Origin: Enhydrobacter aerosaccus
GTDB lineage: Bacteria; Pseudomonadota; Alphaproteobacteria; Reyranellales; Reyranellaceae
Direction: 5' to 3'
Length of the DNA stretch: 32,000 nucleotides
Assembly (NCBI RefSeq): GCF_900167455.1
Contig: NZ_FUWJ01000008.1
Span: 153,378 to 185,377, forward strand
Part shown: piece after piece, positions 1 through 28,096 of the stretch
Numbering within the stretch: the first letter of the stretch is position 1
Layout of the letters: each line of letters starts with the position of its first letter
Translations under genes and position numbers: made by a program
The notes under the pieces: model-generated
Told to the model about the DNA's origin: nothing
The model's input: the letters and a program-made list of their open reading frames with translations, nothing else
The model's database searches: none

Positions 1-720
1 CCCGAAATCGCAGCACCTGCACCAAGCCCTGTGTCCAGCCTCGCAAATCTGGGCTTGGCGCCATCCATGATATCATCGGCCCAGGATCAGAAGCTTGCCT
101 TCCTGAATGCCGCTCCCGACCGGCGCACCGTGTCGCCGGATCGGATAGTGGCGCCGGCGTCGCCGAACATCCTTCAGGCGGGCGCCGTGATCCCGGCCGC
201 GCTGATCACCGGCATCCGCTCGGACCTTCCCGGTCAGATCATCGCGCAGGTCACGGAGAACATCCATGACAGTCCGACCGGTCGCATTTTGCTCGTGCCC
301 CAGGGCACGCGCATCATCGGCCAATACGACAGCAATGTGCAGTTCGGCCAAGGACGCGTCTTGCTGGTCTGGAACCGGCTGATATTCCCGAACGGCCGGT
401 CGATCGTCCTCGAGCGGCAGCCCGGCGCCGACGCCGAGGGTTATGCCGGCCTTCAGGACGGCGTCGACTATCATTGGTGGGATCTCGCCAAGGCGGCAGG
501 CCTGTCAACCTTGCTCAGCATCGGCGCCGAGCTGGCCACCAACAACGACGATGCGCTGATCCGGGCGATCCGCAACGGCGGTCAGGACACGATCAATGAT
601 GCCGGCCAGCAGATCATCCGGCGGCAGCTCAACGTCGCACCGACGTTGACCATCCGGCCAGGTTTTCCCGTGCGCATCATCGTCACGCGGGACTTGGTCC
701 TCGAACCGTTTGGAGGCTAG
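1..720 (+). CDS. trbI: Conjugal transfer protein TrbI (VirB10 family), C-terminal portion; 5' end lies outside the window
   Basis: Frame 1 is open from base 1 into the listed ORF 31..720. The translation (GRILLVPQGTRIIGQYDSNVQFGQGRVLLVWNRLIFPNGRSIVL ... TLTIRPGFPVRIIVTRDLVL) matches my recollection of the conserved TrbI/VirB10 C-terminal region. A DUF2274-like ORF follows 3 nt later, as in trb operons. Confidence 0.85.
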   Translation, partial: PEIAAPAPSPVSSLANLGLAPSMISSAQDQKLAFLNAAPDRRTVSPDRIVAPASPNILQAGAVIPAALITGIRSDLPGQIIAQVTENIHDSPTGRILLVPQGTRIIGQYDSNVQFGQGRVLLVWNRLIFPNGRSIVLERQPGADAEGYAGLQDGVDYHWWDLAKAAGLSTLLSIGAELATNNDDALIRAIRNGGQDTINDAGQQIIRRQLNVAPTLTIRPGFPVRIIVTRDLVLEPFGG

Positions 721-2525: not shown

Positions 2526-3284
2526 CTAGAACCATGCACGGAGGCCTACCGTGAACCGAATCTGTTGGGTCGAGCCGCCGGCTGCGCTGACATAGTCGGC
2601 AGTCGCGCCGTATTGGCCCAAATAGGTAATGCCGACATAGGGCGCGAACTCGCGCGTAATCTCGTAGCGCAGGCGCAGCCCCGCGTCGAGTTCCGACAGG
2701 CCGGCGCCAACCAATCGCGCTGGATCATCCTTGGTGTAGAAATTCATTTCGAGTTGCGGCTGCAGGATGAGGCGTTGCGTGATCAACAGGTCGTAGCTGG
2801 CCTCCAGCCTGGCCGCGAGATGGCCTTCGCCGCTGACGTAGCCTATGGCCGAGACCTTGAAGAACTGGGGCGCCAGCCCCTGGATGCCGATCGCGCCCCA
2901 GCCGCGGCTCGGCGCGGAGTCCAGATCGTATCGGATGCCGACGAGAGCGTCGAAGTAAGTGGTGATCGCCCGGCCGTAGAGGAGCTGCTGGATACCGTCA
3001 TCCAGTTCGTTGTTGGTGAACCTTCCTTCGCTGAGCAGCCATACCCGGTTCTCGTCCGTGCCCAGCCACCCTTGCGCTGACCACCGGAAGGTGTTGCCTT
3101 CGGCGAAGCCGAACCGCCCTTCGAGCTGGTCGAACAACAGATGGGCAAAGATGGCCTGATCCAACATCTTCGGCATGCTGTGCGGCTGTCCCTGGTCGGC
3201 GGCAGGTGTCTGCTGGGCGTGGGCGCCGCCCGCGAAAATGGCGACCATAAGAGCAGCGCAGAGAGCGGCGACGAGCTTCTTCAT
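2526..3284 (-). CDS. pcoB: Copper resistance outer-membrane protein CopB/PcoB family
   Basis: I chose the internal ATG at 3284 (MKKLVAALCAALMVAIFAGGAHA signal peptide). It overlaps the upstream oxidase stop in an ATGA. The listed 352-aa ORF start would run 300 nt into the oxidase gene. Beta-barrel-like alternating sequence with a terminal F (...FTVGLRAWF), plus the CopB-like LFDQLE and WLGTD..R.W segments. Confidence 0.85.
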   Translation of the reverse strand: MKKLVAALCAALMVAIFAGGAHAQQTPAADQGQPHSMPKMLDQAIFAHLLFDQLEGRFGFAEGNTFRWSAQGWLGTDENRVWLLSEGRFTNNELDDGIQQLLYGRAITTYFDALVGIRYDLDSAPSRGWGAIGIQGLAPQFFKVSAIGYVSGEGHLAARLEASYDLLITQRLILQPQLEMNFYTKDDPARLVGAGLSELDAGLRLRYEITREFAPYVGITYLGQYGATADYVSAAGGSTQQIRFTVGLRAWF

Positions 3285-5167
3285 GATATGCGCACCTCGC
3301 GCATCATGCCGAGCTCCATGTGGTAGAGGAGGTGGCAGTGGAAGGCCCACCGGCCAGGCTCGTCGGCGCTCACCAGGAAGCTCAGCTTCTCGCCAGGCTT
3401 GACCAGGATGGTGTGCTTGTAGGGGCGATAGTCGCTCTGCCCGTTCTCCAGCTCGCTCCACACGCCATGCAGGTGCATGGGATGATCCATCATCGTGTCG
3501 TTGATCAAGGTGAAGCGCACGCGCTCGCCGAGCTTCAGCATGATCGGCGCGGCATCCGAGAACTTGATGCCGTCGAGGCTCCACATGAAGCGTTCCATGT
3601 TGCCCGTCAGGTGCAGCACGATCTCGCGCGTCGGTGGCCGCAGATCGTTGCCGCGTTTGGCGTTGCGCAGATCGCTGAGCAGCAGCACACGGCGGCCGTT
3701 ACCGTCGAGACCATCTCCGGCTTCTGAGAGACGCGACTTCGGCGCCATCGCGACATTGTCGACGCCGACCCGGCCTTCAAGCTGGGACGCGGTATTTGCC
3801 GCCGACATATCAACCATCGATCCCTGGCTCGGCATTGCGCTGCCCGCGCCCGGCATGCCTCCGTGCGCGCTGTGGTCCTGCGGGGTGACAGCGTTTGGTC
3901 CCGGCTCCATGCCCGGCATCGAGTGCTGCATTCCAGGCATCGCAGCTTGGTTCCCCGCCGGCATAGTGTGGCCGGCGTGAGGGTTACTCGATGCCGCCGG
4001 CACCGCATCACTGGGTGCCGTTCCACCATGCGCGCCGTGCCCAGCCGCACCGTGCTCCATTCCCATGTCGGCCATCGTGCGCATAGGCCGAGGGTCCATC
4101 GGCGGTACTGCCGCGCTCATGCCCGACCGTGGGGCCAAGGTGCCGCGGGCGTAGCCCGTGCGATCCTGGGCTTGGGCGAAGATCGTGTAGGCTTGCGCCT
4201 CGCGCGGCTCAACGATCACGTCGTACGTCTCGCCCGGACCGATGCGGAATTCATCGACTGTCACCGGCACGATGTCGTTGCCGTCGGTCTGTACCACCGT
4301 CATCGGCAAGCCGGGGACGCGCACGTCGAAGATGCTCATGGTCCCGGCGTCGATGAAGCGCAGCCGCACGCGCTCGCCCGGGTGAAACAGCGCCGTCCAG
4401 TTGGCGGCTGGCGGCCGGCCGTTCATGAGATAGGTGTAGGTGGCACCCGACACGTCGAGGATATCGGTGGGGGCCATGCGCATATTGCCCCACATCAACC
4501 GATCCGACACCGTTGCACCGAGACCGCTGCGGCGGATGTCGTCGATAAACGTCCCCAATGTCCGCTGGCCATAGTTGTAATAGGTGCTCTGGAACTTGAG
4601 GTTGCTGATGATTGCAAGCGGGCTCTCGTCGCTCCAGTCCGACAGCACGACGACATAGTCGCGATCGAAGCGTTGCGCGAAGCCTCCCTTGGGCTCGATA
4701 ACCAGCGAGCCATAGACGCCGGTCTGCTCCTCAGGGCCATGCGCGTGATACCAGTAGGTGCCACTCTGGCGGAGCGCGTACCGATACACGAAGGTCTCAC
4801 CCGGGGCGATGCCGTTGAAGCTGAAGCCCGGCACACCGTCCATGGGGGACGGAATGCGCAACCCATGCCAATGGATCGATGTCGTGAAGGCCAGCCGATT
4901 AGTAACAGCGAGTGTGACCGTATCACCCTCGCGAAAGCGCAGCGTGGGTCCCGGAACCTGCCCGTTGATGGCGGTGGCGGTCATCGTCCGACCGGTGACG
5001 TTGAAGCGCAGAGGTGCAATTTCGAGCTGGAATTCGGTACCGCTCAGCACCGAGGGCGACGCGGCCGACGCGCTCCAAGGAGGCAGCGCCGTGGCAGCGC
5101 CCGCAGCCGCAATGCCCTGGACGAAACGACGACGGCCGACAGGTGGCTTGGAAGGATGGCCTGCCAT
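3281..5167 (-). CDS. pcoA: Periplasmic multicopper oxidase of the CopA/PcoA copper-resistance type (Tat-exported)
   Basis: 628 aa. Twin-arginine leader (GRRRFVQGIAAAGAA), copper-ligand motifs HWHG, WYHAH, HPMHLHG and HCHLLYHMELGMM, and an internal Met/His-rich insert (MDPRPMRTMADMGMEHGAAGHGAHGG...MPGMQHSMPGM). Confidence 0.93.
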   Translation of the reverse strand: MAGHPSKPPVGRRRFVQGIAAAGAATALPPWSASAASPSVLSGTEFQLEIAPLRFNVTGRTMTATAINGQVPGPTLRFREGDTVTLAVTNRLAFTTSIHWHGLRIPSPMDGVPGFSFNGIAPGETFVYRYALRQSGTYWYHAHGPEEQTGVYGSLVIEPKGGFAQRFDRDYVVVLSDWSDESPLAIISNLKFQSTYYNYGQRTLGTFIDDIRRSGLGATVSDRLMWGNMRMAPTDILDVSGATYTYLMNGRPPAANWTALFHPGERVRLRFIDAGTMSIFDVRVPGLPMTVVQTDGNDIVPVTVDEFRIGPGETYDVIVEPREAQAYTIFAQAQDRTGYARGTLAPRSGMSAAVPPMDPRPMRTMADMGMEHGAAGHGAHGGTAPSDAVPAASSNPHAGHTMPAGNQAAMPGMQHSMPGMEPGPNAVTPQDHSAHGGMPGAGSAMPSQGSMVDMSAANTASQLEGRVGVDNVAMAPKSRLSEAGDGLDGNGRRVLLLSDLRNAKRGNDLRPPTREIVLHLTGNMERFMWSLDGIKFSDAAPIMLKLGERVRFTLINDTMMDHPMHLHGVWSELENGQSDYRPYKHTILVKPGEKLSFLVSADEPGRWAFHCHLLYHMELGMMREVRIS

Positions 5168-14543: not shown

Positions 14544-15398
14544 CTAGAGGACCTCTAGGATCAATGAGAAGCGTTCATTGGCGACTTTGCGTTGCTGTTC
14601 GGTCAGGTCCGGCAGGAGCCGGGTGAAAGCCGTCGCAACGTAGCGAAGCGCCGCAATTCGCGCGGAAAGACGCCGTTCCTGCTGGCGCACCAGGGCTACG
14701 GCGTCCAACGGCTCGTTCGAGGGCGTCTGTTCCGTGAATGCCCGGCGGTCCGCCGCTGCTGCTGAACGTACCGATTCGGCAAAGCCAGTCCAATTCGCAG
14801 GTTCGGGCTGACCGATTCCGATCTCGTCGCGGAATCGCGTCAATCGGACTTCGACTTCTGCCGGCGCTACTGGTTGCCGGTCGGCAACAGAAGGAGGGGC
14901 AGGGGCAGGGCGCGCAGCAGGCATGGGCATGGTATGCGGCTCTGGTGATGCTGCAGATCCCGCTCCCTGCTGGGGGGCTGGCGGGCGTCCGTGCATTGAC
15001 ATCGTGGGCGACCCGGAGAGCTCTCCAGTGCCGCTTGAGGGTGCCGGTTCCGCAGTGGCTGCGGAGGCAGGGGGAGAAGCCCCGGTGCTGCCGCCTGGAC
15101 AGAAGAAGCTGAAGTCGCCGGTCGCCCTGCCTTTGTCGAACTCGGCCCAGTTCGGCTGAACACGATGGGCAGGAAGACTGTCGAAGGTTCCTGTCTGATG
15201 GCACATCGCACAGTGGGACTGGTGAGCCGGCACACGCAGGCGCCCTTGCGAAATGCAGTAGGTGTCGATCAAGTCGCCATAGCCTTGGCTTGGCCTTGCC
15301 ATCGTTGACACGCCGCCGGCGAGGGCGAGCGTCGTGATCAGCAGCCCGGCCAAGGTCATCTTACGGTCAAGCATGCTGGTGTTCCGCGTACTCGGCAT
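14544..15398 (-). CDS. Secreted fusion protein: N-terminal domain with one CxxCH (putative monohaem cytochrome c), Pro/Ala-rich linker, C-terminal LTXXQ (Spy/CpxP-like) domain
   Basis: 284 aa. Begins 6 nt after the hydrogenase large-subunit stop. Hydrophobic leader (MTLAGLLITTLALAGGVSTMA), CAMCH motif, and C-terminal LPDLTEQQRKVANERF. The C-terminal ~100 aa align by eye with the C-terminus of the protein at 18292..19011. The start codon is uncertain (M1, M9 or M14). Confidence 0.6.
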   Translation of the reverse strand: MPSTRNTSMLDRKMTLAGLLITTLALAGGVSTMARPSQGYGDLIDTYCISQGRLRVPAHQSHCAMCHQTGTFDSLPAHRVQPNWAEFDKGRATGDFSFFCPGGSTGASPPASAATAEPAPSSGTGELSGSPTMSMHGRPPAPQQGAGSAASPEPHTMPMPAARPAPAPPSVADRQPVAPAEVEVRLTRFRDEIGIGQPEPANWTGFAESVRSAAAADRRAFTEQTPSNEPLDAVALVRQQERRLSARIAALRYVATAFTRLLPDLTEQQRKVANERFSLILEVL

Positions 15399-15404
15399 GG
15401 CGCC

Positions 15405-17129
15405 CTAGAGGACCTTGACCTCGACAAGCTCACGTCCGCCCGGGTCGATGACGTGCACGGCGCAGGCCAGGCAAGGGTCGAAGCTGTGGATGGTCCTCAG
15501 GATCTCGAGCGGCCGCGTAGCATCGGCGAGACGATGCCCTCGCAGGGCGGCCTCATAGGGGCCATCTTGTCCCCGCGCGTCGCGCGGACCCGCGTTCCAG
15601 GTGCTGGGAACGACCGCCTGATAGTTTGCGATCTTGCCTTTCTCGATGGCAACCCAGTGTGCCAGCGCGCCGCGTGGCGCTTCCATGAACCCTGCGCCAC
15701 GGGCCTGAGGTGGCCACGTTGAGGGATCGAACAGGCTGTCGTCGAACGTGGCTCGATCGCCGGCCGCGATGTTGCGCAGCAGCGCGCTGTGCATGTCCGC
15801 GAGCGCATCAGCCAGAATCTTCGTTTCAAGGGTTCGTGAGGCAACGCGGCCCAACGTTGAGAAAAGACCTTCGATCGGCAGATCCAGCCGCTTAAGGCTG
15901 CTATCGATGAGTTCTCTCGCCTTGCGATCTCCGGTCGCATAGAGCAGCAGCATGCGCGCCAGCGGGCCGACTTCCATTGGTTTGCCACGCCAACGCGGTG
16001 ACTTGATCCAGGAATAGGAACGATCGACGTCGAGGTGCTCGTACGGTGGCTGTGGTCCCGTGTAGTTCGGGCGCGTTTCGCCATCGTACGGGTGAAGCGG
16101 CTTGTGCTTGCCGACCGAATAATCGTACCAGGAGTGGCTCACGAACTCCTGGACCTGCGCCGGATCTTCGAGATCGACGGGTAGCACCTTCGACAAATCG
16201 CGATCGAGAATGGCGCCGCGCGGAAACAACAGGGTCGACGAATTGAATGTATCGGTCCCGCGTGGAAGATCACCATAGCATAGGAAGTTGCCGGTGCCTT
16301 CGCCTACCTTGCTCCAATCCTTATAGTAGCTCGCGATCGCCAGGGTGTCGGGTAGGTAGACGTGATCTACGAAGTCACGCATCTTCTCGATAATGACGCC
16401 CACCTGCTTCAGGCTTGCAGCAGATACGGCCGTCACCTGCTCGCCCTCGCTGATCGTACAGGGAGCGCCCCCGACCACGAAGTTCGGGTGCGGATTGCGG
16501 CCGCCGAAGATGGCGTGAATCTTGACGACCTCGCGTTGCCACGCCAACGCCTCCAGGTAGTGGGCAAAGGCCAGCAGATTGACCTCGGGGGGCAACTTGT
16601 ACTCGGGGTGACCCCAATAGCCGTTGGTGAAGATCCCGAGCTGGCCACCGTCAACAAAGCGGCGCAGTCGGTCGCGGACAGTCGCGAAATAGTCCGTGCT
16701 GTTGTTGGTCCAGGGGCTGAGAGAGCGCTGCAATCGTGACGTTGCACCGGGGTCGGCGCTGGCCGCCGACATCACGTCCACCCAGTCGAGGGCATGAAGA
16801 TGATAGAAGTGCACCACATGGTCGTGGACGAACTGCGTCGCGATCATGATGTTGCGGATGAGCTGGGCGTTCGGGGGAATCTCGTATCCCAGAGCGAACT
16901 CGACGGCGCGCACCGATGCGATGCTGTGAACCACCGTGCACACGCCGCAGAATCGTTGCGTGAACGCCCAGGCATCGCGTGGGTCACGTCCGTTCAGGAT
17001 CAGTTCGATGCCACGCATCATGGTGCCGGAGCTCGAAGCGCGGGTGATGAACCCGGAGGCATCGGTCTCCGCCTCGATCCTGAGGTGCCCTTCGATGCGG
17101 GTCACCGGGTCAACGACGATGCGCGCCAT
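15405..17129 (-). CDS. [NiFe]-hydrogenase large subunit (group 1, periplasmic uptake type)
   Basis: 574 aa. N-terminal RIEGH and RFCGVCTVVH motifs, C-terminal DPCLACAVH followed by a 15-aa extension (VIDPGGRELVEVKVL) for endopeptidase processing. GGAG-type RBS about 10 nt upstream. Confidence 0.95.
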   Translation of the reverse strand: MARIVVDPVTRIEGHLRIEAETDASGFITRASSSGTMMRGIELILNGRDPRDAWAFTQRFCGVCTVVHSIASVRAVEFALGYEIPPNAQLIRNIMIATQFVHDHVVHFYHLHALDWVDVMSAASADPGATSRLQRSLSPWTNNSTDYFATVRDRLRRFVDGGQLGIFTNGYWGHPEYKLPPEVNLLAFAHYLEALAWQREVVKIHAIFGGRNPHPNFVVGGAPCTISEGEQVTAVSAASLKQVGVIIEKMRDFVDHVYLPDTLAIASYYKDWSKVGEGTGNFLCYGDLPRGTDTFNSSTLLFPRGAILDRDLSKVLPVDLEDPAQVQEFVSHSWYDYSVGKHKPLHPYDGETRPNYTGPQPPYEHLDVDRSYSWIKSPRWRGKPMEVGPLARMLLLYATGDRKARELIDSSLKRLDLPIEGLFSTLGRVASRTLETKILADALADMHSALLRNIAAGDRATFDDSLFDPSTWPPQARGAGFMEAPRGALAHWVAIEKGKIANYQAVVPSTWNAGPRDARGQDGPYEAALRGHRLADATRPLEILRTIHSFDPCLACAVHVIDPGGRELVEVKVL

Positions 17130-17163: not shown

Positions 17164-18132
17164 CTAGAACGGCTTTGTGTAGAAGCCGCCAGGGCGATCC
17201 CAGAAACTCGGCTGCGCACAGCCCAGACAACCGTGGCCGGAATACATTGGAAAGCTGGTCCCTTGGTTCCACTTGATCGTCGTGCAGGCATTGAACGTTA
17301 GTGGCCCCTTGCAGCCGAGATCCTTGAGGCACCAGCCCTTGCGAGCGCCTTCGTCGTCAAAGCTGCGCGCGAACTGCTGGCGCTCGAAGAACGGCAAGCG
17401 CGTGCAATTGTCGTGAACGGTCTTGCCGAAGAAGATCTTGGGCCGGCGCAGATCGTCGAGGGCGGGAATCGAACCGTAAGTGAGATAGTAGGTGACAAGG
17501 CCTGTGATCACTTCGGGCACGGGGGGACAACCAGGAATGTTGACGATTGGAGCCGTCACCTTGCCGGCCGCCACGAGGTCGCCGAGCGCGTCTGCCGCTC
17601 CGAAAGCACCGGAAGGATTTGGTGCGGCCGCCCCGATGCCGCCAAAGGCGGCACACGTACCGACCGAGGCAATAACCGCCGCCCCTTGGGCGGCATTGCG
17701 GACCAGCGACAGGCCTGCCTTGCCTCCGGTCGTTGACCGCGCGCCCGCATCCTTTCCGGGAATTGAGCCATCGACGATGAGGAAATACTTGCCCCAATTC
17801 TGCTCGATCGCCCGATCGCGCGCTGCCTCCGCCGCTGCGCCGGCTGCCGCTTGAAGCACGTGGTGGTAGTCCAACGAGATGGAGTCGAGGATCAGACTCT
17901 CCAGAGTTGGCTCGAAGGAGCGGAGCAGCGATTCGCTGCAGCCGGTGCATTCTTGTACCGACAGCCAGATCACGCTTGGCCGGGGCTTGGACGCAAGAGC
18001 TTGCGCAATCACTTCCGCGCTTCCCACCGGCAAGGTCAGCACCGAGCTCATGTACCCACAGAACTTCAGGAAGCCGCGCCGTGACACACCTTGGTTTCGC
18101 AATTCTTCGTAGAGCGATGGACGGACTCCCAT
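17164..18132 (-). CDS. [NiFe]-hydrogenase small subunit, Tat-exported, no C-terminal membrane anchor
   Basis: 322 aa. Tat motif SRRGFLKF, proximal cluster ECTGCSES and GTCAAFGG, GCPP, distal/medial cluster cysteines (HDNC, GCKGP, GHGCLGC). The protein ends 12 aa after FWD. Confidence 0.95.
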   Translation of the reverse strand: MGVRPSLYEELRNQGVSRRGFLKFCGYMSSVLTLPVGSAEVIAQALASKPRPSVIWLSVQECTGCSESLLRSFEPTLESLILDSISLDYHHVLQAAAGAAAEAARDRAIEQNWGKYFLIVDGSIPGKDAGARSTTGGKAGLSLVRNAAQGAAVIASVGTCAAFGGIGAAAPNPSGAFGAADALGDLVAAGKVTAPIVNIPGCPPVPEVITGLVTYYLTYGSIPALDDLRRPKIFFGKTVHDNCTRLPFFERQQFARSFDDEGARKGWCLKDLGCKGPLTFNACTTIKWNQGTSFPMYSGHGCLGCAQPSFWDRPGGFYTKPF

Positions 18133-18291: not shown

Positions 18292-19011
18292 CTACCGAAT
18301 GCCCATGTGCGGCGCGATGAGTTCGTTGGCGATTTTCTTCTGCTTGTCGTCGAGCGCCGCATAGAGCTTCGCGTAGGCGGGCTTCAACGCCTTCACGCTT
18401 TCCAGGCGCACCGTGAGCCAGCGCTCTTGATCATCCAGTCGGTCGGCGGCGGTTGTCGTGGTCCGCTGCGGCTGACCCTTTTGGGCGTCCTCGACGCGCT
18501 TTGCATTCGTGCGCATAACGGTCGCAAACTCTGTCCATGTCGGCATCTGCGGTTCCGTGATCTTCAGCTCAGCATGAAGGTAGGCGATGCGACCGTCGAT
18601 GTGGTCCGTGGGCAGATCCATCATGCGGGTTTGCATCATCATCTGCATCATCTGGGGGCCCATCATGGCTCCGGGTCCCATTGGTCCCGCCACTTGACCC
18701 TGCACGCCAGGACCTTGCATCGCTCCGCACTGTCCGCCAGAGCAATCACCGGGTGTCTGCATGTTCTGCATGCCCGAGCCACCCATGTTGTGGCCTTCCA
18801 TGCCCATGCTCTTTCCCTGGCTCTGCATGCCCTGGCCTTGCATGCCTTGGCCCTTCATACCCTGACCCTTCATGCCCTTATCGTCGTCCATCATCTGCGC
18901 AACGACGATCTTTGTCGGATCGAGGGTCTGCGAAGAACCGATCGCCGGGGCAAGTACGATGGTCGCCATCGTCGCTAGGCTTGCAGCAGATAAGAAGTTC
19001 ATACGTGTCAT
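18292..19011 (-). CDS. Secreted Met/Gly/Gln-rich protein with a C-terminal LTXXQ (Spy/CpxP-like) domain
   Basis: 239 aa. Signal peptide (MTRMNFLSAASLATMATIVLAPAIG), a KGMKGQGMKGQGMQGQGMQSQG repeat tract plus MMGPQMMQMMMQTRMM, and a helical C-terminus ending LDDKQKKIANELI. AAAGGAA RBS upstream. Confidence 0.7.
   Translation of the reverse strand: MTRMNFLSAASLATMATIVLAPAIGSSQTLDPTKIVVAQMMDDDKGMKGQGMKGQGMQGQGMQSQGKSMGMEGHNMGGSGMQNMQTPGDCSGGQCGAMQGPGVQGQVAGPMGPGAMMGPQMMQMMMQTRMMDLPTDHIDGRIAYLHAELKITEPQMPTWTEFATVMRTNAKRVEDAQKGQPQRTTTTAADRLDDQERWLTVRLESVKALKPAYAKLYAALDDKQKKIANELIAPHMGIR
18823..18880 (-). repeat. About 3.8 tandem copies of a 15-bp unit encoding the G-M-x-G-Q pentapeptide repeat
   Basis: Plus-strand units ctgcatgccctggcc / ttgcatgccttggcc / cttcataccctgacc / cttcatgccctta, read directly from the sequence. 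Confidence 0.85.
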
Positions 19012-19719: not shown

Positions 19720-21672
19720 GTGAAGAGTGAATATCCGCCGGCCCGCAATAAGGCGATGCGCCGTGGCTTGATGCTTCTGGCGGTAGCCGTTTTTGGAGGT
19801 GCAGCTCCCGCTGCTGCACAGCCCGCAGATTCCCATTCCGAGCATCATCCCGGTCAGACGCCGTCCGCTCCGTCTGCCGGCCAACCGGCACCATCATCCG
19901 CCGGCGGCATGGAGATGATGGGCTCGATGATGGGCGGCCCACCCAGAAAGCAGCTCTATCCCCAGCTGATGGAGTTGCCGGTCATGACCCCGGAAGCCCG
20001 TCTCAAGATTGAGACGGACGCGCGAGCCCGAATTGTCACCGGCAACGCGGCACTCGTACAGGGGCAGGACGATTATCACCGCGCTGCGATGAATAATGAC
20101 GCGGCCGCAATGTCAGCCGCCTTGTCTCGCCAGCGTGCTGCGTTGGCAGAGATCGAGAGCGGCACATCAGCGTTGCGTGCGCTCGCAGAGGGGAGTCCGC
20201 CCCACGAGATTGCCTTGAGCTGGTTCCGTGACCAGATGAATCTCGCTCGGCCGACCTCGCCAGTACAAGAAGAGGTTGGACCGCTCAACCTATCTTGGTT
20301 CCACATCGTCTCCATGACGGTGGTACTGCTGTTCGCGCTGACGATGCTTGTCGTCGGTGTTGGGCGTCGACATCGCTCGCTTGCCTTGGTCAATCGTTTG
20401 ACTCGACCAGCCGGCCCCCAACCAGCGCAGGGTCGTGCGCCCGTACCGATCTCTGCCTCCCCTACGCCCACGACTCCAGCGGTATCCCCTCCACCACCGC
20501 CGTCGACAAAGGTCCAGCAGTCACCTCCGCTACCATCGCCTCCAACGTCTATATCGACATGGTCCGGAACGCTGCGCGTCGCCAGCATTGTTCGTGAGAC
20601 ACCTCTCGTAAAGACCTTCCGGCTGGTTGAGCCAGGAGGTGGCGCTATCCCGTTCTCCTATGCCCCCGGCCAGTTCTTGACTTTCTCAGCGCAGATCGAC
20701 GGCAGACTGGTGCGCCGATCCTACACGATCGCCTCGCCACCAACACGGACCTCGTACGTGGAGGTCACCGTCAAGCGCGAGGAGGAGGGGGCGTATTCAC
20801 GCTTCCTGCACGACAGCGTCGTGCCTGGCAGCGTGCTGCAGGTTCGTGGCCCCTCGGGTGTGTTCACCTTCGATGGGGGAAACGCCGAAAGTATCGTCCT
20901 GATCGCCGGCGGCGTCGGTATCACGCCCATGATGTGCGTGATCCGCTATCTGACGGACATGAGCTGGCCAGGCGAGATCTTCCTGATCCTTGCTGCACGG
21001 AACACCGACGAGCTGATCTTCCGTGAAGAGCTCGAGTACCTGCAGCGCCGTCATCCCAAGCTCCATGTTGTGGCGTCGGTCGGCGCGAGGTCGGAAGGAT
21101 CAGCATGGATGGGCTTGGAAGGCCAGATAACGAAGGACGCACTCGCCCATGCAGTACCTTCACTAGAAATTCGACGCGTCCACCTGTGCGGTCCACCGCC
21201 CATGATGGAGACTATACGGCGCATCCTGAGCGAATTGGGTGTGCCAGCCAACCAGGTCAAGACTGAAGCTTTTGGTCCGGCCACCGGGGCCGTGCCGCCG
21301 CCGCGTCCTCTGCCGCCCCCACCGCCACCTTTGATGGTGACGGAGCTTGTCGAGCGGGTCGAGGCTGCCACACCTCCGTTGATGGAACCCATACCGGTGG
21401 CGGGTCCGGCGACGGCGACCATCTCCTTCGACCGGTCTCACAAATCAGCGCCTCTCCCGCCCGACAAGACGGTCCTTGAGGTGGCGGAGTCGATCGGCGT
21501 GCCGATCGACTACTCCTGCCGCGTAGGGACCTGTGGCCTCTGCAAGACCAAGTTGCTGGCTGGTCAGGTTACTATGGAGGTTCAGGACGCGCTGACGGAC
21601 GACGATAAGGCGTCCGGGATAATACTCGCCTGCCAAGCCCATTCTCTGGGCGACATCACGGTCGACGCCTGA
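19720..21672 (+). CDS. Membrane-tethered oxidoreductase: signal peptide, His/Met-rich periplasmic helical domain, one TM helix, FNR-type FAD/NAD(P)-binding core, C-terminal plant-type [2Fe-2S] ferredoxin domain
   Basis: 650 aa. MRRGLMLLAVAVFGGAAPAAA/QP leader; HSEHH and GGMEMMGSMMGG; TM at about residues 191-215 followed by RRHR; Pro-rich linkers; RRSYTIAS (FAD), VLIAGGVGITP (NAD(P)), HLCGPPPM; CRVGTCGLC...ACQA (2Fe-2S). GTG start at 19720, or ATG at 19756. Confidence 0.8.
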   Translation: MKSEYPPARNKAMRRGLMLLAVAVFGGAAPAAAQPADSHSEHHPGQTPSAPSAGQPAPSSAGGMEMMGSMMGGPPRKQLYPQLMELPVMTPEARLKIETDARARIVTGNAALVQGQDDYHRAAMNNDAAAMSAALSRQRAALAEIESGTSALRALAEGSPPHEIALSWFRDQMNLARPTSPVQEEVGPLNLSWFHIVSMTVVLLFALTMLVVGVGRRHRSLALVNRLTRPAGPQPAQGRAPVPISASPTPTTPAVSPPPPPSTKVQQSPPLPSPPTSISTWSGTLRVASIVRETPLVKTFRLVEPGGGAIPFSYAPGQFLTFSAQIDGRLVRRSYTIASPPTRTSYVEVTVKREEEGAYSRFLHDSVVPGSVLQVRGPSGVFTFDGGNAESIVLIAGGVGITPMMCVIRYLTDMSWPGEIFLILAARNTDELIFREELEYLQRRHPKLHVVASVGARSEGSAWMGLEGQITKDALAHAVPSLEIRRVHLCGPPPMMETIRRILSELGVPANQVKTEAFGPATGAVPPPRPLPPPPPPLMVTELVERVEAATPPLMEPIPVAGPATATISFDRSHKSAPLPPDKTVLEVAESIGVPIDYSCRVGTCGLCKTKLLAGQVTMEVQDALTDDDKASGIILACQAHSLGDITVDA

Positions 21673-21673
21673 C

Positions 21674-22354
21674 ATGGGCGACAAAGAGCGAGTTGTCGTC
21701 CTGGCGCTCGGAACACTGCTGCTCTTCCTTGCGCCTGGCTATCTCTTGCACGTTTCGCCGCGCTTTGCGGGCAGCCTGGCCGGCGGAGTACTGGGGATCA
21801 TGGCAGCAACTTTCATGCTGCTGGCGCTCGTCTACCCCGCCGTCAAGTACATCGGTTGGCTGAAAGTTCGCGTGACGCGGCATGTTTCGCTGGGCCGCCT
21901 TCTTAGCTTCCACATCTACGGCGGGCTTCTAGCATCCCTGATTGCCATCCTGCATTCGGGACACAAATATCAAAGCGGCCTGGGCATCGCGCTGATTGCG
22001 GATATTGTGATTGTGATCGGGACGGGCTTTATCGGCCGTTACTATCTTGCACATCTCGGGACGGAAGTACGCCGGCAGCAGGCGCTGCTCGGGACGTTAC
22101 GCACGGCCTATGATCGCATCGCGCTTCACCTCGGGCGCCAAGCCACTGTCGGCGCAGCCGCACCGGATGTCCCTATCCTGACACTCGTCGATGCGATTGC
22201 AGACATCGAATACTCGCTCGGGATGCGCGACACCGCCAAACGTATCGCCGGTCGATGGATTGTCGTCCACATCGTCGCGTCGATTCTAATGTACGGGCTC
22301 CTGTTGCTGCATATCGGCGGAGGAATCTATTATGGGCTGCGGTGGCTTCCATGA
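21674..22354 (+). CDS. Integral membrane protein, about 5 TM helices, with H-x13-H on two helices (putative dihaem cytochrome b, ferric-reductase-domain/DUF4405-like)
   Basis: 226 aa. H80/H94 in predicted TM3 (FHIYGGLLASLIAILH) and H199/H213 in TM5 (VHIVASILMYGLLLLH). Starts 1 nt after the reductase stop. Confidence 0.6.
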   Translation: MGDKERVVVLALGTLLLFLAPGYLLHVSPRFAGSLAGGVLGIMAATFMLLALVYPAVKYIGWLKVRVTRHVSLGRLLSFHIYGGLLASLIAILHSGHKYQSGLGIALIADIVIVIGTGFIGRYYLAHLGTEVRRQQALLGTLRTAYDRIALHLGRQATVGAAAPDVPILTLVDAIADIEYSLGMRDTAKRIAGRWIVVHIVASILMYGLLLLHIGGGIYYGLRWLP

Positions 22355-23091
22355 AATGGAAGGCGCTTATTTACCTGTTGCTTGTAACGGTGACCGTCGC
22401 CAGCTCTATCATGGCTGTCGGTACCGTCTATCGTAAGGGATCGGCAAGCTTGCCTCACTGGGCGACATTGGTGAGGCCGGGCGCCCTTTCAACCAAGCAC
22501 GCCTTTCTCTCCAATCAGTGCGAGGCGTGCCATACGCCGGTCAAGGGCGTGGAAGCCGCAGCCTGCATCTCATGTCATGCGGCCGATGCCACGACGCTCG
22601 CCCGCGAATCGACGGCCTTTCACGCGACCATTCAGACCTGTGCGACATGCCACGTCGAGCATTTGGGTGAAGTCCGTCCGACCCGCATGGACCACGATGC
22701 TCTGATCGCAATCGGGCGCTCGAGGCTCGTGAACCAACCGTCTCCCTGGTTTGCGTCACTGTCGGGTCACGCGCCCGCTGACTTGGGCACGCTCGATTGC
22801 TTCGCCTGTCACAGCAACCGCAGTCCGCACCGCGACCTGTTCGGTAAGGAGTGCGCTGCCTGCCATTCGACGGCGACGTGGAATGTGGCGGGCTTCAAAC
22901 ACCCGTCGCCCAGTTCGACCGAGTGCGCGCAGTGCCATCAAGCCCCGCCCAGCCATTACATGGGTCACTTTGAGATGGTCTCGGAGAAGGTGGCGGGCCA
23001 GGAGCATGCCCGGGTCGAGCAATGCTATCTCTGCCATCAAACTGATGCTTGGAACGACATCAGGGGGGTGGGCTGGTACAAACATCACTAA
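22351..23091 (+). CDS. Membrane-anchored heptahaem c-type cytochrome (cytochrome c3/multihaem family)
   Basis: Start at ATG 22351, overlapping the upstream stop (ATGA). N-terminal TM anchor (ALIYLLLVTVTVASSIMAVGTV). Seven CxxCH motifs: CEACH, CISCH, CATCH, CFACH, CAACH, CAQCH, CYLCH. Confidence 0.85.
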   Translation: MKWKALIYLLLVTVTVASSIMAVGTVYRKGSASLPHWATLVRPGALSTKHAFLSNQCEACHTPVKGVEAAACISCHAADATTLARESTAFHATIQTCATCHVEHLGEVRPTRMDHDALIAIGRSRLVNQPSPWFASLSGHAPADLGTLDCFACHSNRSPHRDLFGKECAACHSTATWNVAGFKHPSPSSTECAQCHQAPPSHYMGHFEMVSEKVAGQEHARVEQCYLCHQTDAWNDIRGVGWYKHH

Positions 23092-23182: not shown

Positions 23183-23469
23183 TCAGCGAAGGGTGAACTA
23201 CCAGTAAAGTTCCTCCCTCATCGCTCTGGCCGTACTTCGTTGGTGGTTTCGGAACCTTGGTCCGCTGTTTAACAATCACGGGCTCCTGCATCCTCACAAG
23301 CCCCCGCCTTGCGGCTCATCTGCCATGGTCAATGGCATGACCCCAGCCATTCGCGGATCTACAGCGCGCGCCAGTGCACGCGTTCCTCAGAAGGGGCCAC
23401 ATTCGAAGTGTCCAACGACTTCTGGCGGCGCTGTCTCGCCTCGATCAACACAGAGGGGCCGACGGACAA

Positions 23470-23712
23470 ATGGATCATACAAATAAGCCAGCTTGGTGGC
23501 GTCAACCGTTCCCCTGGGTGCTGATCGGCTTCCTCACTGCAGGCGGTTTTCTCCTGTTTACCGAACACCGAGCGCACGTTCTAGGTGTTCTGCCCTTCCT
23601 CCTTCTCTTGCTGTGTCCTGTGATGCATCTCTTCATGCATCATGGGCACGGCGGTCGCAGCGGGCAGCGACGCAACGCTGATGATCGGCTTAACGAAACC
23701 CATCACGACTGA
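23470..23712 (+). CDS. DUF2933-family small membrane protein
   Basis: 80 aa from ATG 23470. One TM helix, then EHRAHVLGVLPFLLLLLCPVMHLFMHHGHGG, the pattern I associate with DUF2933. Confidence 0.65.
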   Translation: MDHTNKPAWWRQPFPWVLIGFLTAGGFLLFTEHRAHVLGVLPFLLLLLCPVMHLFMHHGHGGRSGQRRNADDRLNETHHD

Positions 23713-24404
23713 TGACGAAGGCGATCTTGCAAGATCACTCTCCTGCCTATGGGCTCTGGTTTCTGGTCATCGTCAACTCGGTGATCTTCATCGGATTCGC
23801 CTTCGCCTTCTTCAAGCCGCATACAGGGCGTGACTGGCGTTCCTTTGGCGCCTTCAGTGCCTTCTTGGTTGCACTGTTCGCCGAAATGTATGGCTTTCCG
23901 CTGACGATCTACGTCTTGTCAGGTTGGCTGCAGAGTCGCTTCCCTAATGTTGACTGGTTCTCCCACGACGCCGGTCATCTCCTCGAGATGATATTTGGCT
24001 GGCAGGCAAATCCACACGCCGGCCCGTTCCACGTGTTGAGCTTCCTCTTCATCGGTGCGGGCTTCTTGCTGATATCGGTAGGCTGGAAGGCACTCTATCA
24101 GGGCCAACGACAGCACCAGCTGGTCACGACTGGCGTTTATGGCTACATGCGTCATCCCCAATACGTCGGCTTCATCCTTGTGATGTTCGGCTTCCTGCTT
24201 CAGTGGCCGACCTTGTTGACCCTGACGATGTTCCCCGTGCTCGTCTTCATGTATGTGCGCTTGGCTCGCGTCGAGGAGCGGGATGCCGCCGCTGAATTCG
24301 GCAGTCTGTATGAACGCTATCGACACGACGTTGCTGGCTTCGTCCCGCGGCTATCGGGATTCTTTTCCGCACCCTCTCGCCGGGCTGCGAACGATGAAGA
24401 ATGA
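23712..24404 (+). CDS. Isoprenylcysteine carboxyl methyltransferase (ICMT)/PEMT-like membrane methyltransferase family protein
   Basis: 230 aa, multi-TM. Carries the LVTTGVYGYMRHPQYVGF signature and RLARVEERDAAAEFG. The ATG overlaps the DUF2933 stop (TGATG). Confidence 0.85.
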   Translation: MTKAILQDHSPAYGLWFLVIVNSVIFIGFAFAFFKPHTGRDWRSFGAFSAFLVALFAEMYGFPLTIYVLSGWLQSRFPNVDWFSHDAGHLLEMIFGWQANPHAGPFHVLSFLFIGAGFLLISVGWKALYQGQRQHQLVTTGVYGYMRHPQYVGFILVMFGFLLQWPTLLTLTMFPVLVFMYVRLARVEERDAAAEFGSLYERYRHDVAGFVPRLSGFFSAPSRRAANDEE

Positions 24405-24783
24405 GCGAAAACCGGGGTGCCCTGGCAGGAGAGGCATCGGCTTCGCTTGCAGCGTGATGTACTTCGGGGTCTTGGTCATTGCGACTATCGGCCTACCTGG
24501 TGCCGCACGGGCCACTGACACGTGCCGCAGTGCACTTGAGGACTTGGTAACGGAGTGGCGATCCATCGCCGTGCCGGGCAAGCCCGAGCCGCCCGACCAC
24601 GTCCACACAGCGCTCGAGGTCTGGTACATGCGCGGCCAACTACGACTGGCGCTCCGGTTGTGCGAAGAGGACAAAGACCACGAAGCCATGCTGCGAATGG
24701 ATCTCGTAAGAGCTTGGCTCAGACTTCCAGAAGTGCGCCATCCGGCCGATCACCGTTATCGCTATGACGACGATCTTCGCTGA
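24394..24783 (+). CDS. Hypothetical small exported protein
   Basis: ATG 24394 overlaps the ICMT 3' end by 11 nt. Hydrophobic leader (MYFGVLVIATIGLPGAARA). No recognisable domain, so coding status is uncertain. Confidence 0.3.
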   Translation: MKNERKPGCPGRRGIGFACSVMYFGVLVIATIGLPGAARATDTCRSALEDLVTEWRSIAVPGKPEPPDHVHTALEVWYMRGQLRLALRLCEEDKDHEAMLRMDLVRAWLRLPEVRHPADHRYRYDDDLR

Positions 24784-28082: not shown

Positions 28083-28096
28083 TTGATCTGGATCAA
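28083..28096. promoter_or_regulatory. Perfect FNR/FixK-type box TTGATCTGGATCAA
   Basis: Exact match to TTGAT-N4-ATCAA and the only perfect one I found in the window. It is intergenic, centred about 153 nt upstream of the ATG at 27936 on the minus strand. Confidence 0.55.

Follow-up and report, generated by a model that had tools for sequence, protein, structure and literature searches.

We analysed a 32,000-nt stretch of the genome of Enhydrobacter aerosaccus (contig NZ_FUWJ01000008.1, positions 153,378 to 185,377; hereafter the window, to which all coordinates refer), in which three consecutive genes on the forward strand (19720-23091) are predicted to form a transmembrane electron-transfer system. 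We call them g1, g2 and g3 in the order in which they occur, and collectively the trio. They encode a membrane-tethered NAD(P)H:[2Fe-2S] flavoprotein reductase of 650 residues (g1, 19720-21672), a predicted dihaem cytochrome b of 226 residues (g2, 21674-22354), and a membrane-anchored periplasmic heptahaem cytochrome c of 246 residues (g3, 22351-23091). An earlier interpretation made from the letters of the window (the sequence-only reading) had likened the trio to a ferric reductase divided among separate proteins, and we recovered at the same positions the three open reading frames (ORFs), the FNR and [2Fe-2S] motifs, the two H-x13-H pairs and the seven CxxCH motifs that it reported. The translational coupling that it proposed is also evident, as g2 starts 1 nt past the stop codon of g1 (gcc TGA c ATG) and g3 overlaps the end of g2 by ATGA.

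The g1 ORF begins with GTG, and an ATG at 19756, giving MRRGLMLLAV..., is an equally plausible start. The periplasmic part of the protein (19756-20289, +) comprises a Sec-type signal peptide (residues 13-33, MRRGLMLLAVAVFGGAAPAAA, followed by QP), an HxxHH motif, a Pro/Ser linker, a Met cluster and a helical domain. We examined the conservation of g1 in 46 orthologues, including those of Alteromonas and Legionella. The HxxHH motif (H39-x2-H42H43, nt 19834-19848) is found in 42 of these, among them the Alteromonas and Legionella proteins, and a Met or Met/Cys cluster equivalent to GGMEMMGSMMGG (residues 62-73, nt 19903-19938) is conserved among the orthologues. The helical domain (residues 76-190, ~115 residues) is family-specific and had no Pfam match, and single-sequence and profile searches with the periplasmic domain returned only short fragments of g1 itself and no other context. 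An L(T/S)PEQR motif had suggested to us that the domain might be LTXXQ/CpxP-like, but this idea was rejected, as a local hhalign comparison with the neighbouring LTXXQ domains gave a probability of 0.4%.

Alignments place a single transmembrane (TM) helix at residues ~192-215 (20293-20364, +), with RRHR on its cytoplasmic side. The motif S-W-x-H195 (residues 192-195, window 20293-20307) lies at the periplasmic end of this helix, and H195 is present in all 46 sequences, while R216 of the RRHR motif is present in 43. A Pro-rich linker connects RRHR to an FNR module (residues 284-521) that is followed by a plant-type [2Fe-2S] domain (residues 568-650; together 20569-21672, +). Pfam matches above the cut-offs were obtained for FAD_binding_6 (312-383), NAD_binding_1 (394-500) and Fer2 (572-640), and the motifs RRSYTIAS, VLIAGGVGITP and a C-terminal C-x4-C-x2-C-x29-C are all present, so that g1 has the domains, the C-terminal Fer2 and the RxYS/T and GGxGxxP motifs of the FNR-[2Fe-2S] reductase class. 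R333, Y335 and C605 are invariant (46/46), and the four cluster cysteines are kept in all aligned orthologues. The positive-inside rule places the FNR module in the cytoplasm rather than the periplasm, in agreement with the sequence-only reading. There was no equivalog-level NCBIfam match to a named enzyme, and the best scores were all far below the equivalog cut-offs (GbcB, 213 bits against 500; Hcr-like, 185 against 383; PaaE, 180 against 421); the Ferric-reductase NAD_binding_6 model scored 22.1 bits against a cut-off of 22.2. The closest solved relatives are methane monooxygenase reductase, cytochrome b5 reductase, phthalate dioxygenase reductase (PDR) and flavohaemoglobin. All of the nearest solved and annotated relatives are NAD(P)H-oxidising donors, and several of them, such as cytochrome b5 reductase and flavohaemoglobin, donate to haem.

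The second gene encodes a protein with five TM helices that carries two H-x13-H pairs, H80/H94 on TM3 (nt 21911-21913 and 21953-21955) and H199/H213 on TM5 (22268-22270 and 22310-22312, all +), which we predict to be the ligands of two b haems. To assess conservation we used 56 diverse sequences (22-75% identity) together with 23 close ones. The sequence-only reading had made the haem prediction depend on these four histidines being retained, and they are invariant in 23/23 close and 56/56 diverse homologues, down to 22% identity. Two other histidines on the periplasmic side are semi-conserved (H26 in 37/56, H97 in 41/56), and these, together with H195 of g1, might make up an additional binding site for metal or haem at the surface of the membrane. 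The lysine plus arginine (K+R) count is 4.9 in the loop between helices 2 and 3 and 12.2 in that between helices 4 and 5, compared with 0.8-1.2 in loops 1-2 and 3-4 and the C-terminus, a bias that by the positive-inside rule indicates an N-in, C-out topology. TM3 and TM5 would then be parallel, so that H80 and H199 would lie towards the cytoplasm and H94 and H213 towards the periplasm, the same His geometry as in NOX/FRE domains and cytochrome b/b6. The two pairs therefore satisfy the His pattern of a ferric reductase domain, namely two pairs 12-14 residues apart on parallel TM3 and TM5. An AlphaFold2 model built from the 56-sequence alignment was of high confidence (pLDDT 93.7, pTM 0.84) and showed TM4 and TM5 running on as ~57-residue helices to form a cytoplasmic hairpin of ~70 residues. 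The long cytoplasmic loop of the sequence-only reading is thus present, but its description as a basic loop of 65 residues is not borne out, since the loop is a helical hairpin in which acidic residues nearly balance the basic ones (K+R 12.2, D+E 11.3).

A word-indexed search returned 443 homologues of g2, some of them named "iron reductase" by NCBI and three carrying a precomputed match to DUF4405 (PF14358), and when 1.84 billion cluster representatives were searched exhaustively with a profile, 1511 scored at E<=1e-3, of which 313 reached E<=1e-10. The g2 protein itself had no Pfam or NCBIfam match at E<=0.01. When the family was scanned member by member, weak matches to DUF4405 (30/56), Ferric_reduct (24/56) and Ni_hydr_CYTB (21/56) recurred, with essentially nothing else. 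All three are dihaem cytochrome b families, so the possibility raised in the sequence-only reading that g2 would match a non-haem family did not materialise. Haem b binding by DUF4405 has been shown experimentally (PMC11334425). The best E-value among g2 members was 5.2e-5 for DUF4405 and 1.8e-5 for Ferric_reduct (PF01794), with the window protein scoring 12.6 bits against a gathering score of 26.7 and 11.1 bits against a cut-off of 28, respectively. The family profile had one relevant match among PDB sequences, the NOX5 TM domain, which was not significant (E 0.82), and g2, with five TM helices, gave no structural match to the solved six-TM ferric reductase domains. Because the Pfam score is sub-threshold and there is no structural match, we regard the resemblance to NOX and FRE proteins as functional rather than as a family assignment: the ferric-reductase likeness put forward in the sequence-only reading holds for the pattern of His pairs but does not demonstrably extend to family membership. 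We describe g2 as a predicted dihaem cytochrome b that belongs to a new family, for which neither Pfam nor NCBIfam has a model.

Two unusual family members were also inspected. One (P0204) had been considered a g1-g2 fusion of the Rosetta stone type but looks like a frameshifted g1-g2 junction instead. In the other (P0129, 545 aa), a DUF547 domain is joined to the periplasmic C-terminal end of a g2 homologue, in place of a separate cytochrome c; this protein was uninformative as Rosetta stone evidence for the trio, and it suggests that the g2 family can feed other periplasmic modules.

The third protein, g3, has an N-terminal hydrophobic anchor followed by seven CxxCH motifs (C57, C72, C97, C150, C168, C192 and C225), which are invariant in 46 sequences that include those of Alteromonas and Legionella; counted over a larger set, seven CxxCH are present in 86 of 87 orthologues. 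Eight further histidines (H50, H91, H104, H115, H160, H184, H202 and H206) are invariant in the same 46 sequences. With at least eight additional invariant histidines alongside the seven motifs, all seven haems are probably bis-His coordinated, as in the low-potential c3/c7 cytochromes, which would leave no obvious open catalytic haem. Membership in the c3/c7 multihaem family is indicated by the multiple CxxCH motifs, a sufficient number of histidines, and Pfam scores above the cut-offs for Cytochrome_C7 (PF14522, 30.4 against 24.8), Cytochrom_c3_2 (PF14537, 27.6 against 25) and Paired_CXXCH_1 (PF09699, 22.7 against 20.6). The profile searches suggested in the sequence-only reading thus succeeded for g1 and g3, while g2 stayed below every cut-off.

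To examine whether the three genes belong together, we surveyed synteny at 80 loci in GTDB species-representative genomes. At all 80 loci g3 lies downstream of g2, and g1 lies directly upstream of g2 at 79, with a spacer of 1 nt at 46; the periplasmic domain of g1 is recognisable at 76. The same gene order in 79-80 of 80 loci, which extends to plasmids, is far beyond chance and confirms the co-occurrence on which the sequence-only reading had staked its proposal. The hosts are mostly Alphaproteobacteria (Reyranella, Bradyrhizobium, Microvirga, Sphingobium, Roseomonas and Rhodopseudomonas), and the g2 protein of the window is 100% identical to that of Reyranella metagenome-assembled genomes (L008 and L009). 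The trio also occurs on 54 plasmid records, 27 of which are predicted to be conjugative, from hosts that include Legionella, Alteromonas, Variovorax, Methylophaga, Spirosoma and Pontibacter; the plasmid hosts cover Alpha-, Beta- and Gammaproteobacteria as well as Bacteroidota. Its architecture was intact in every plasmid region inspected.

The surroundings of the trio point to copper. In addition to the trio, the window contains genes for TrbI, LysR, CusF, a multicopper oxidase, CopB, HupH, HypE/F/D/B/A/C, a secreted CxxCH-LTXXQ protein, the hydrogenase subunits HydL and HydS, a Met-rich LTXXQ protein, DUF2933, an ICMT-like methyltransferase, EamA, a Crp-family regulator, a YHS/HMBD P1B-ATPase and CsoR, and as a whole it represents a copper island borne by a conjugative element. 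For a broader view we used 43 non-redundant loci, searching 10 kb around the trio with tblastn for multicopper oxidase, CopB, CusF, CsoR and P1B-ATPase genes and assigning Pfam families to four ORFs on each side. At least one of the five copper genes was found at 28/43 loci and a multicopper oxidase at 23/43, so that by co-location the trio behaves as a copper-island accessory, and copper or heavy-metal genes were present in all seven annotated plasmid regions that hold it (7/7). The upstream census was led by LTXXQ (19), followed by OpgC-like acyltransferase (10), DUF1622 (7), multicopper oxidase (6), CopB (4), CusF (2) and cupredoxins (2), and the downstream census yielded extracytoplasmic function sigma factors (5), LTXXQ (4), DUF305 (4), cytochrome c (4) and multicopper oxidase (3). 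Copper had been listed among the candidate acceptors in the sequence-only reading, and this neighbourhood strengthens its candidacy.

A frequent neighbour is the LTXXQ gene, which lies within four ORFs of the trio at 23/43 loci, usually immediately upstream and on the same strand. In the window it is instead divergent from g1 and upstream of hydS (18292-19011, -), and it encodes a periplasmic Met-rich protein (11.7% Met; Pfam LTXXQ, E 2.7e-15) with GM(K/Q)GQ-type repeats. The LTXXQ neighbours of the trio contain 7-13% Met, and Met-rich equivalents also lie upstream of g1 in Alteromonas and Variovorax. We suspect that this partner binds Cu(I) or Ag(I). Together with the copper-gene census, the Met content of the LTXXQ proteins and their Met-rich equivalents indicate an association with copper or soft metals that is robust and spans phyla.

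A second recurring neighbour, which in our view was given too little weight in the sequence-only reading, is a periplasmic [NiFe] hydrogenase without Isp proteins. In the window its Tat-exported small subunit (17164-18132, -) and its large subunit (15405-17129, -; group-1e-like, best solved relative Allochromatium vinosum 3myr, E 5e-257) are encoded by adjacent genes with no isp1 or isp2 between them, and the small subunit lacks a C-terminal anchor. Directly downstream of hydL is a gene for a secreted protein (14544-15398, -) with one CxxCH (CAMCH) and an LTXXQ-like C-terminus (E 1e-5), which shares 44% identity with the protein encoded next after hydL on the BTAi1 plasmid of Bradyrhizobium and may be a monohaem cytochrome linking the hydrogenase to the heptahaem cytochrome. 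Orthologous Isp-less hydrogenases occur near the trio at two Bradyrhizobium/Xanthobacteraceae loci (L043 and L056), on the BTAi1 plasmid pBBta01, and on Alteromonas/Glaciecola plasmids; the arrangement differs among lineages, and on the Alteromonas/Glaciecola plasmids the trio is directly upstream of the hydrogenase on the same strand. Co-location is far from obligate, as a hydrogenase lies within 10 kb of the trio at only ~5/80 genome loci and on some plasmids, and the Legionella, Sphingobium/Rhizorhabdus, Spirosoma and Variovorax regions have the trio with copper genes and without a hydrogenase. We also considered whether g2 is an Isp1 homologue and rejected this, as its profile gave E 3.8 and a negative score against the Isp1-like protein of Methylovirgula. 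Since most loci have no hydrogenase nearby and g2 is unrelated to Isp1, we regard the hydrogenase as an optional partner and not as the reason why the trio exists.

We propose that g1, g2 and g3 assemble into a single inner-membrane complex that moves electrons outward. Cytoplasmic NAD(P)H would reduce the FAD of g1 and then its [2Fe-2S] cluster, from which electrons would pass to the cytoplasm-side haem b of g2 (His80/His199), across to the periplasm-side haem b (His94/His213), and on to the seven low-potential bis-His haems of the anchored g3, with the membrane potential assisting the outward movement. The TM helix of g1 would keep the reductase beside g2 while presenting the HxxHH motif and the Met-rich domain to the periplasm. 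We favour outward flow because the relatives of g1 are all NAD(P)H-oxidising donors and because the membrane potential would assist it. As for the acceptor, c3/c7 cytochromes are known to show metal-reductase behaviour; this, the genomic context, and the His and Met motifs of g1 and the LTXXQ protein lead us to favour periplasmic copper. The trio would then be an accessory of mobile copper-resistance islands that acts as a periplasmic metal reductase, most likely converting Cu(II) to Cu(I), which would be caught by the Met-rich motifs of g1 and the LTXXQ protein and handed to Cu(I)-handling proteins. Where an Isp-less soluble periplasmic hydrogenase adjoins the trio, as in the window, H2 would probably be a second donor to the heptahaem hub, its electrons possibly reaching g3 through the CxxCH-LTXXQ protein. 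A transmembrane conduit from NAD(P)H is likely, and a role in copper or soft-metal homeostasis is reasonably probable; reduction of Cu(II) specifically is a more tentative proposal that we find somewhat doubtful. Taken as a whole, the reading of the trio as an outward conduit from NAD(P)H to the periplasm that serves copper homeostasis, probably as a periplasmic metal reductase, has in our judgement an even chance of being correct.

Several points weigh against this reading. Its main weakness is that the production of Cu(I), the more toxic form, beside a Cu(I)-oxidising multicopper oxidase looks paradoxical for a resistance island. No copper gene was found within 10 kb at 15 of the 43 loci, many of which are on short contigs, and no copper-responsive operator was identified upstream of g1, where we also found no FNR/CRP box and no sigma-70-like promoter. 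In the family searches g2 is below the threshold of every haem-protein family, and a Foldseek comparison of its AlphaFold2 model with the PDB gave nothing significant (cytochrome b6, E 0.6; STEAP1, E 1.9), and the periplasmic domain of g1 has no detectable relative of known function. Haem b binding, assembly into a complex, the direction of flow and the identity of the acceptor are all predictions made from the sequences and their context. Deeper metal reduction with sequestration, or the upkeep of periplasmic redox components under copper stress, would be alternatives to the formation of Cu(I). It is intriguing to consider that the trio, with the hydrogenase where present, could be a dedicated reductive Cu/Ag detoxification machine that draws on NAD(P)H or H2 to bring periplasmic Cu(II)/Cu(I), or Ag(I), to a sequestered reduced state, possibly Cu(0) or Ag(0), with the Met-rich LTXXQ protein and the g1 periplasmic domain retaining the metal. 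Such a machine, based on haem and working in the periplasm, would parallel MerA, and it would account for the joint travel of hydrogenases and metal-resistance islands; we consider it unlikely.

The trio might alternatively be the membrane redox partner of the adjacent [NiFe] hydrogenase, replacing Isp1/Isp2, either inward (H2 to HydSL, possibly through the monohaem cytochrome c, and on through g3, g2 and g1 to NAD(P)+) or in reverse, with the membrane potential helping NAD(P)H to drive the evolution of H2. The enzyme in the window is nearest to the Isp-type hydrogenase of A. vinosum and yet has neither isp genes nor a membrane anchor, and Isp-less orthologues stand beside the trio in Reyranella as well as at the Bradyrhizobium/Xanthobacteraceae, BTAi1 and Alteromonas/Glaciecola sites named above, whereas the Methylovirgula relative, a classical isp-containing hydrogenase, has no trio nearby; c3-type cytochromes are, moreover, the usual partners of soluble periplasmic hydrogenases. 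This explanation sits poorly with the ~5/80 loci at which the enzyme is within 10 kb, with lineages such as those named above that carry the trio and copper genes but no hydrogenase, and with the fact that g2 is not an Isp1 homologue. Inward transfer from H2 to NAD(P)+ would be opposed by the membrane potential, and its driving force at 1 atm H2 would amount to just ~90 mV. In Alteromonas macleodii, the Orf1 and Cyt proteins, which by gene order are homologues of g2 and g3, were dispensable for HynSL activity in Escherichia coli, and no function was assigned to them (PMC3102683). We therefore consider a dedicated hydrogenase partner rather unlikely.

Iron, too, is a conceivable acceptor, and the trio could be a ferric-iron or ferric-siderophore reductase for iron acquisition. 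The name "iron reductase" on several g2 homologues, the remote similarity of g2 to Ferric_reduct, the reduction of Fe(III) by c3/c7 cytochromes in vitro, and the existence of bacterial periplasm-facing haem b ferric-siderophore reductases such as FsrB (PMC10760861) all speak for this, but no NCBIfam model match stands behind the database name, Met-rich motifs are suggestive of soft metals and not of Fe(III), and the neighbour censuses held no recurrent TonB receptors, FeoB or siderophore genes, with a single Nramp transporter and copper genes dominating. An iron-acquisition role is accordingly improbable. We give slightly less weight still to a quinone-linked cytochrome made up of g2 and g3, in the style of CymA, CbcL or HyaC and with no direct wire from NAD(P)H, in which g1 would work apart, for example as an NAD(P)H:quinone or cytoplasmic reductase. 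Weak matches to the quinone-reactive family Ni_hydr_CYTB in 21/56 g2 members and the quinol-using inner-membrane fusions of multihaem and dihaem b proteins known in Geobacter fit this arrangement, while the membrane tether of g1, its translational coupling to g2 at 79/80 loci, and a cytoplasmic [2Fe-2S] donor and conserved g2 hairpin that a quinol dehydrogenase would not need do not. That the genes are merely adjacent and g2 is a non-haem membrane protein with a coincidental His pattern might be argued from its failure to reach any family threshold or structural match; the four histidines, however, are invariant in 56 divergent sequences in which H26 and H97 vary, and gene order and translational coupling are kept across phyla, which makes coincidence very improbable.

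Our preferred reading, an outward conduit that reduces a periplasmic metal, has parallels in several known systems. The eukaryotic ferric and cupric reductases of the FRE, NOX and STEAP families, and the bacterial NOX homologues SpNOX and CsNOX5, follow the same path from NAD(P)H through flavin and two stacked b haems to the outside, with haem His pairs on TM3 and TM5 as predicted for g2. In yeast, Fre1 reduces Cu(II), and Met-motif proteins capture the product. Unlike these enzymes, the trio is divided into three proteins, has an extra [2Fe-2S] cluster between flavin and haem and an outer heptahaem cytochrome c, and its g2 has five TM helices and a cytoplasmic helical hairpin where they have six TM helices. 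Periplasm-facing haem b proteins with a separate cytoplasmic flavin reductase are also found in E. coli MsrQ-Fre, in DUF4405 proteins, and in PepSY_TM proteins (FoxB/FsrB and CrpH), of which FsrB reduces ferric siderophores (PMC10760861) and CrpH is a putative periplasmic copper reductase (PMC13038864). The donor of the trio differs from those of the MsrQ-Fre type in being genetically coupled, membrane-tethered and equipped with a [2Fe-2S] cluster, and the trio would pass its electrons to a multihaem cytochrome c where those systems use MsrP, a flavinylated protein or the substrate itself. CrpH, furthermore, serves copper acquisition under starvation, whereas the trio sits in islands for copper excess.

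In transmembrane composition the trio is similar to Tmc and Hmc of Desulfovibrio and to Isp1-Isp2 of Thiocapsa and Allochromatium, in which a membrane cytochrome b, a cytoplasmic Fe-S protein and, on the periplasmic side, either a multihaem cytochrome c or a hydrogenase are brought together. Those systems have an HdrD-like cytoplasmic subunit where the trio has an FNR-ferredoxin of the NAD(P)H type; there is no relationship between g2 and Isp1, and most trio loci lack a nearby hydrogenase. The reductases PDR, PaaE, Hcr and GbcB have the same FAD-NAD-[2Fe-2S] order and motifs as g1 and provide its best NCBIfam matches (180-213 bits), but they lack the signal peptide, periplasmic domain and TM tether, and their acceptors are soluble oxygenases. 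The trio differs from all systems compared in its tethered donor with a periplasmic domain bearing His and Met motifs, its predicted five-TM dihaem b protein of a new family that carries a cytoplasmic hairpin, its outer heptahaem cytochrome c and its copper-island context. We found no description in the literature of a copper system composed of FNR, cytochrome b and multihaem cytochrome c, and no published expression or mutant data for the trio. The closest prior work concerns the HynSL cluster of the A. macleodii Deep ecotype, in which orf1 and cyt are the g2 and g3 homologues (33% and 45% identity in the near-identical island of pAM1A3, matched by gene order). These genes were tested just for a role in hydrogenase maturation, for which none was found, and the upstream g1 homologue lay outside the cluster studied.

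The oxidising side of periplasmic copper redox chemistry in bacteria is known in the form of multicopper oxidases, while the reducing side has no dedicated machinery assigned to it in resistance islands. Should the trio act as a reductase of copper or of other soft metals, models of copper resistance would gain a step, and the trio would be a bacterial analogue of the eukaryotic FRE and STEAP reductases assembled from different parts. It would also make sense of the "hydrogenase-metal resistance" islands of Alteromonas, which have long been noted but were reported without explanation (PMC5217437; PMC8478169). The trio is widespread (the 313 family representatives at E<=1e-10), travels on conjugative plasmids and integrative elements, and is carried, essentially always as the complete set of three genes, by drinking-water, soil, marine and pathogen-related bacteria, and g2 defines a new predicted dihaem cytochrome b family that is missing from Pfam and NCBIfam.

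Other features of the window and of related loci bear on mobility and on the wider island. A conjugation gene, trbI, lies at the left edge of the window (31-720, +), and contigs of Reyranella metagenome-assembled genomes and of Rhodospirillaceae bacterium CCH5-H10 match the window almost exactly. We consider an integrative conjugative element to be the probable carrier of the copper-hydrogenase island. Among the Sphingobium/Sphingomonas loci (L074-L083 and L087), about eight genomes of different species have identical match statistics for the trio (52% identity and the same E-value), which implies very recent horizontal spread. The same Sphingobium-type element is present on the conjugative plasmid pUPO218 of Rhizorhabdus wittichii, beside MerR-type regulators, DUF1622, DUF305 and an Nramp transporter. 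Directly downstream of the trio in the window is a DUF2933 and ICMT-like methyltransferase gene pair (23374-24404, +; Pfam), a recurrent copper-island cassette that is found near the trio at 8-11 of 80 loci and has been described beside copA in A. macleodii (PMC8478169). A further ORF (24253-24783, +) encodes a product of 176 aa with no family match, homologues of which lie near the trio at 7/80 loci, and a hydrophobic N-terminal stretch past an internal Met suggests that it is secreted or anchored. The mechanically called CopB ORF (2526-3584) overlaps the end of the multicopper oxidase ORF (3281-5167) by ~300 nt on the reverse strand, and the true start of CopB is probably further downstream. 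The number of near-matches to FNR/CRP sites across the whole window equals the chance expectation, and the sole perfect FNR/CRP-type palindrome, TTGATCTGGATCAA (28083-28096), lies between the region of the Crp-family regulator and the P1B-ATPase gene.

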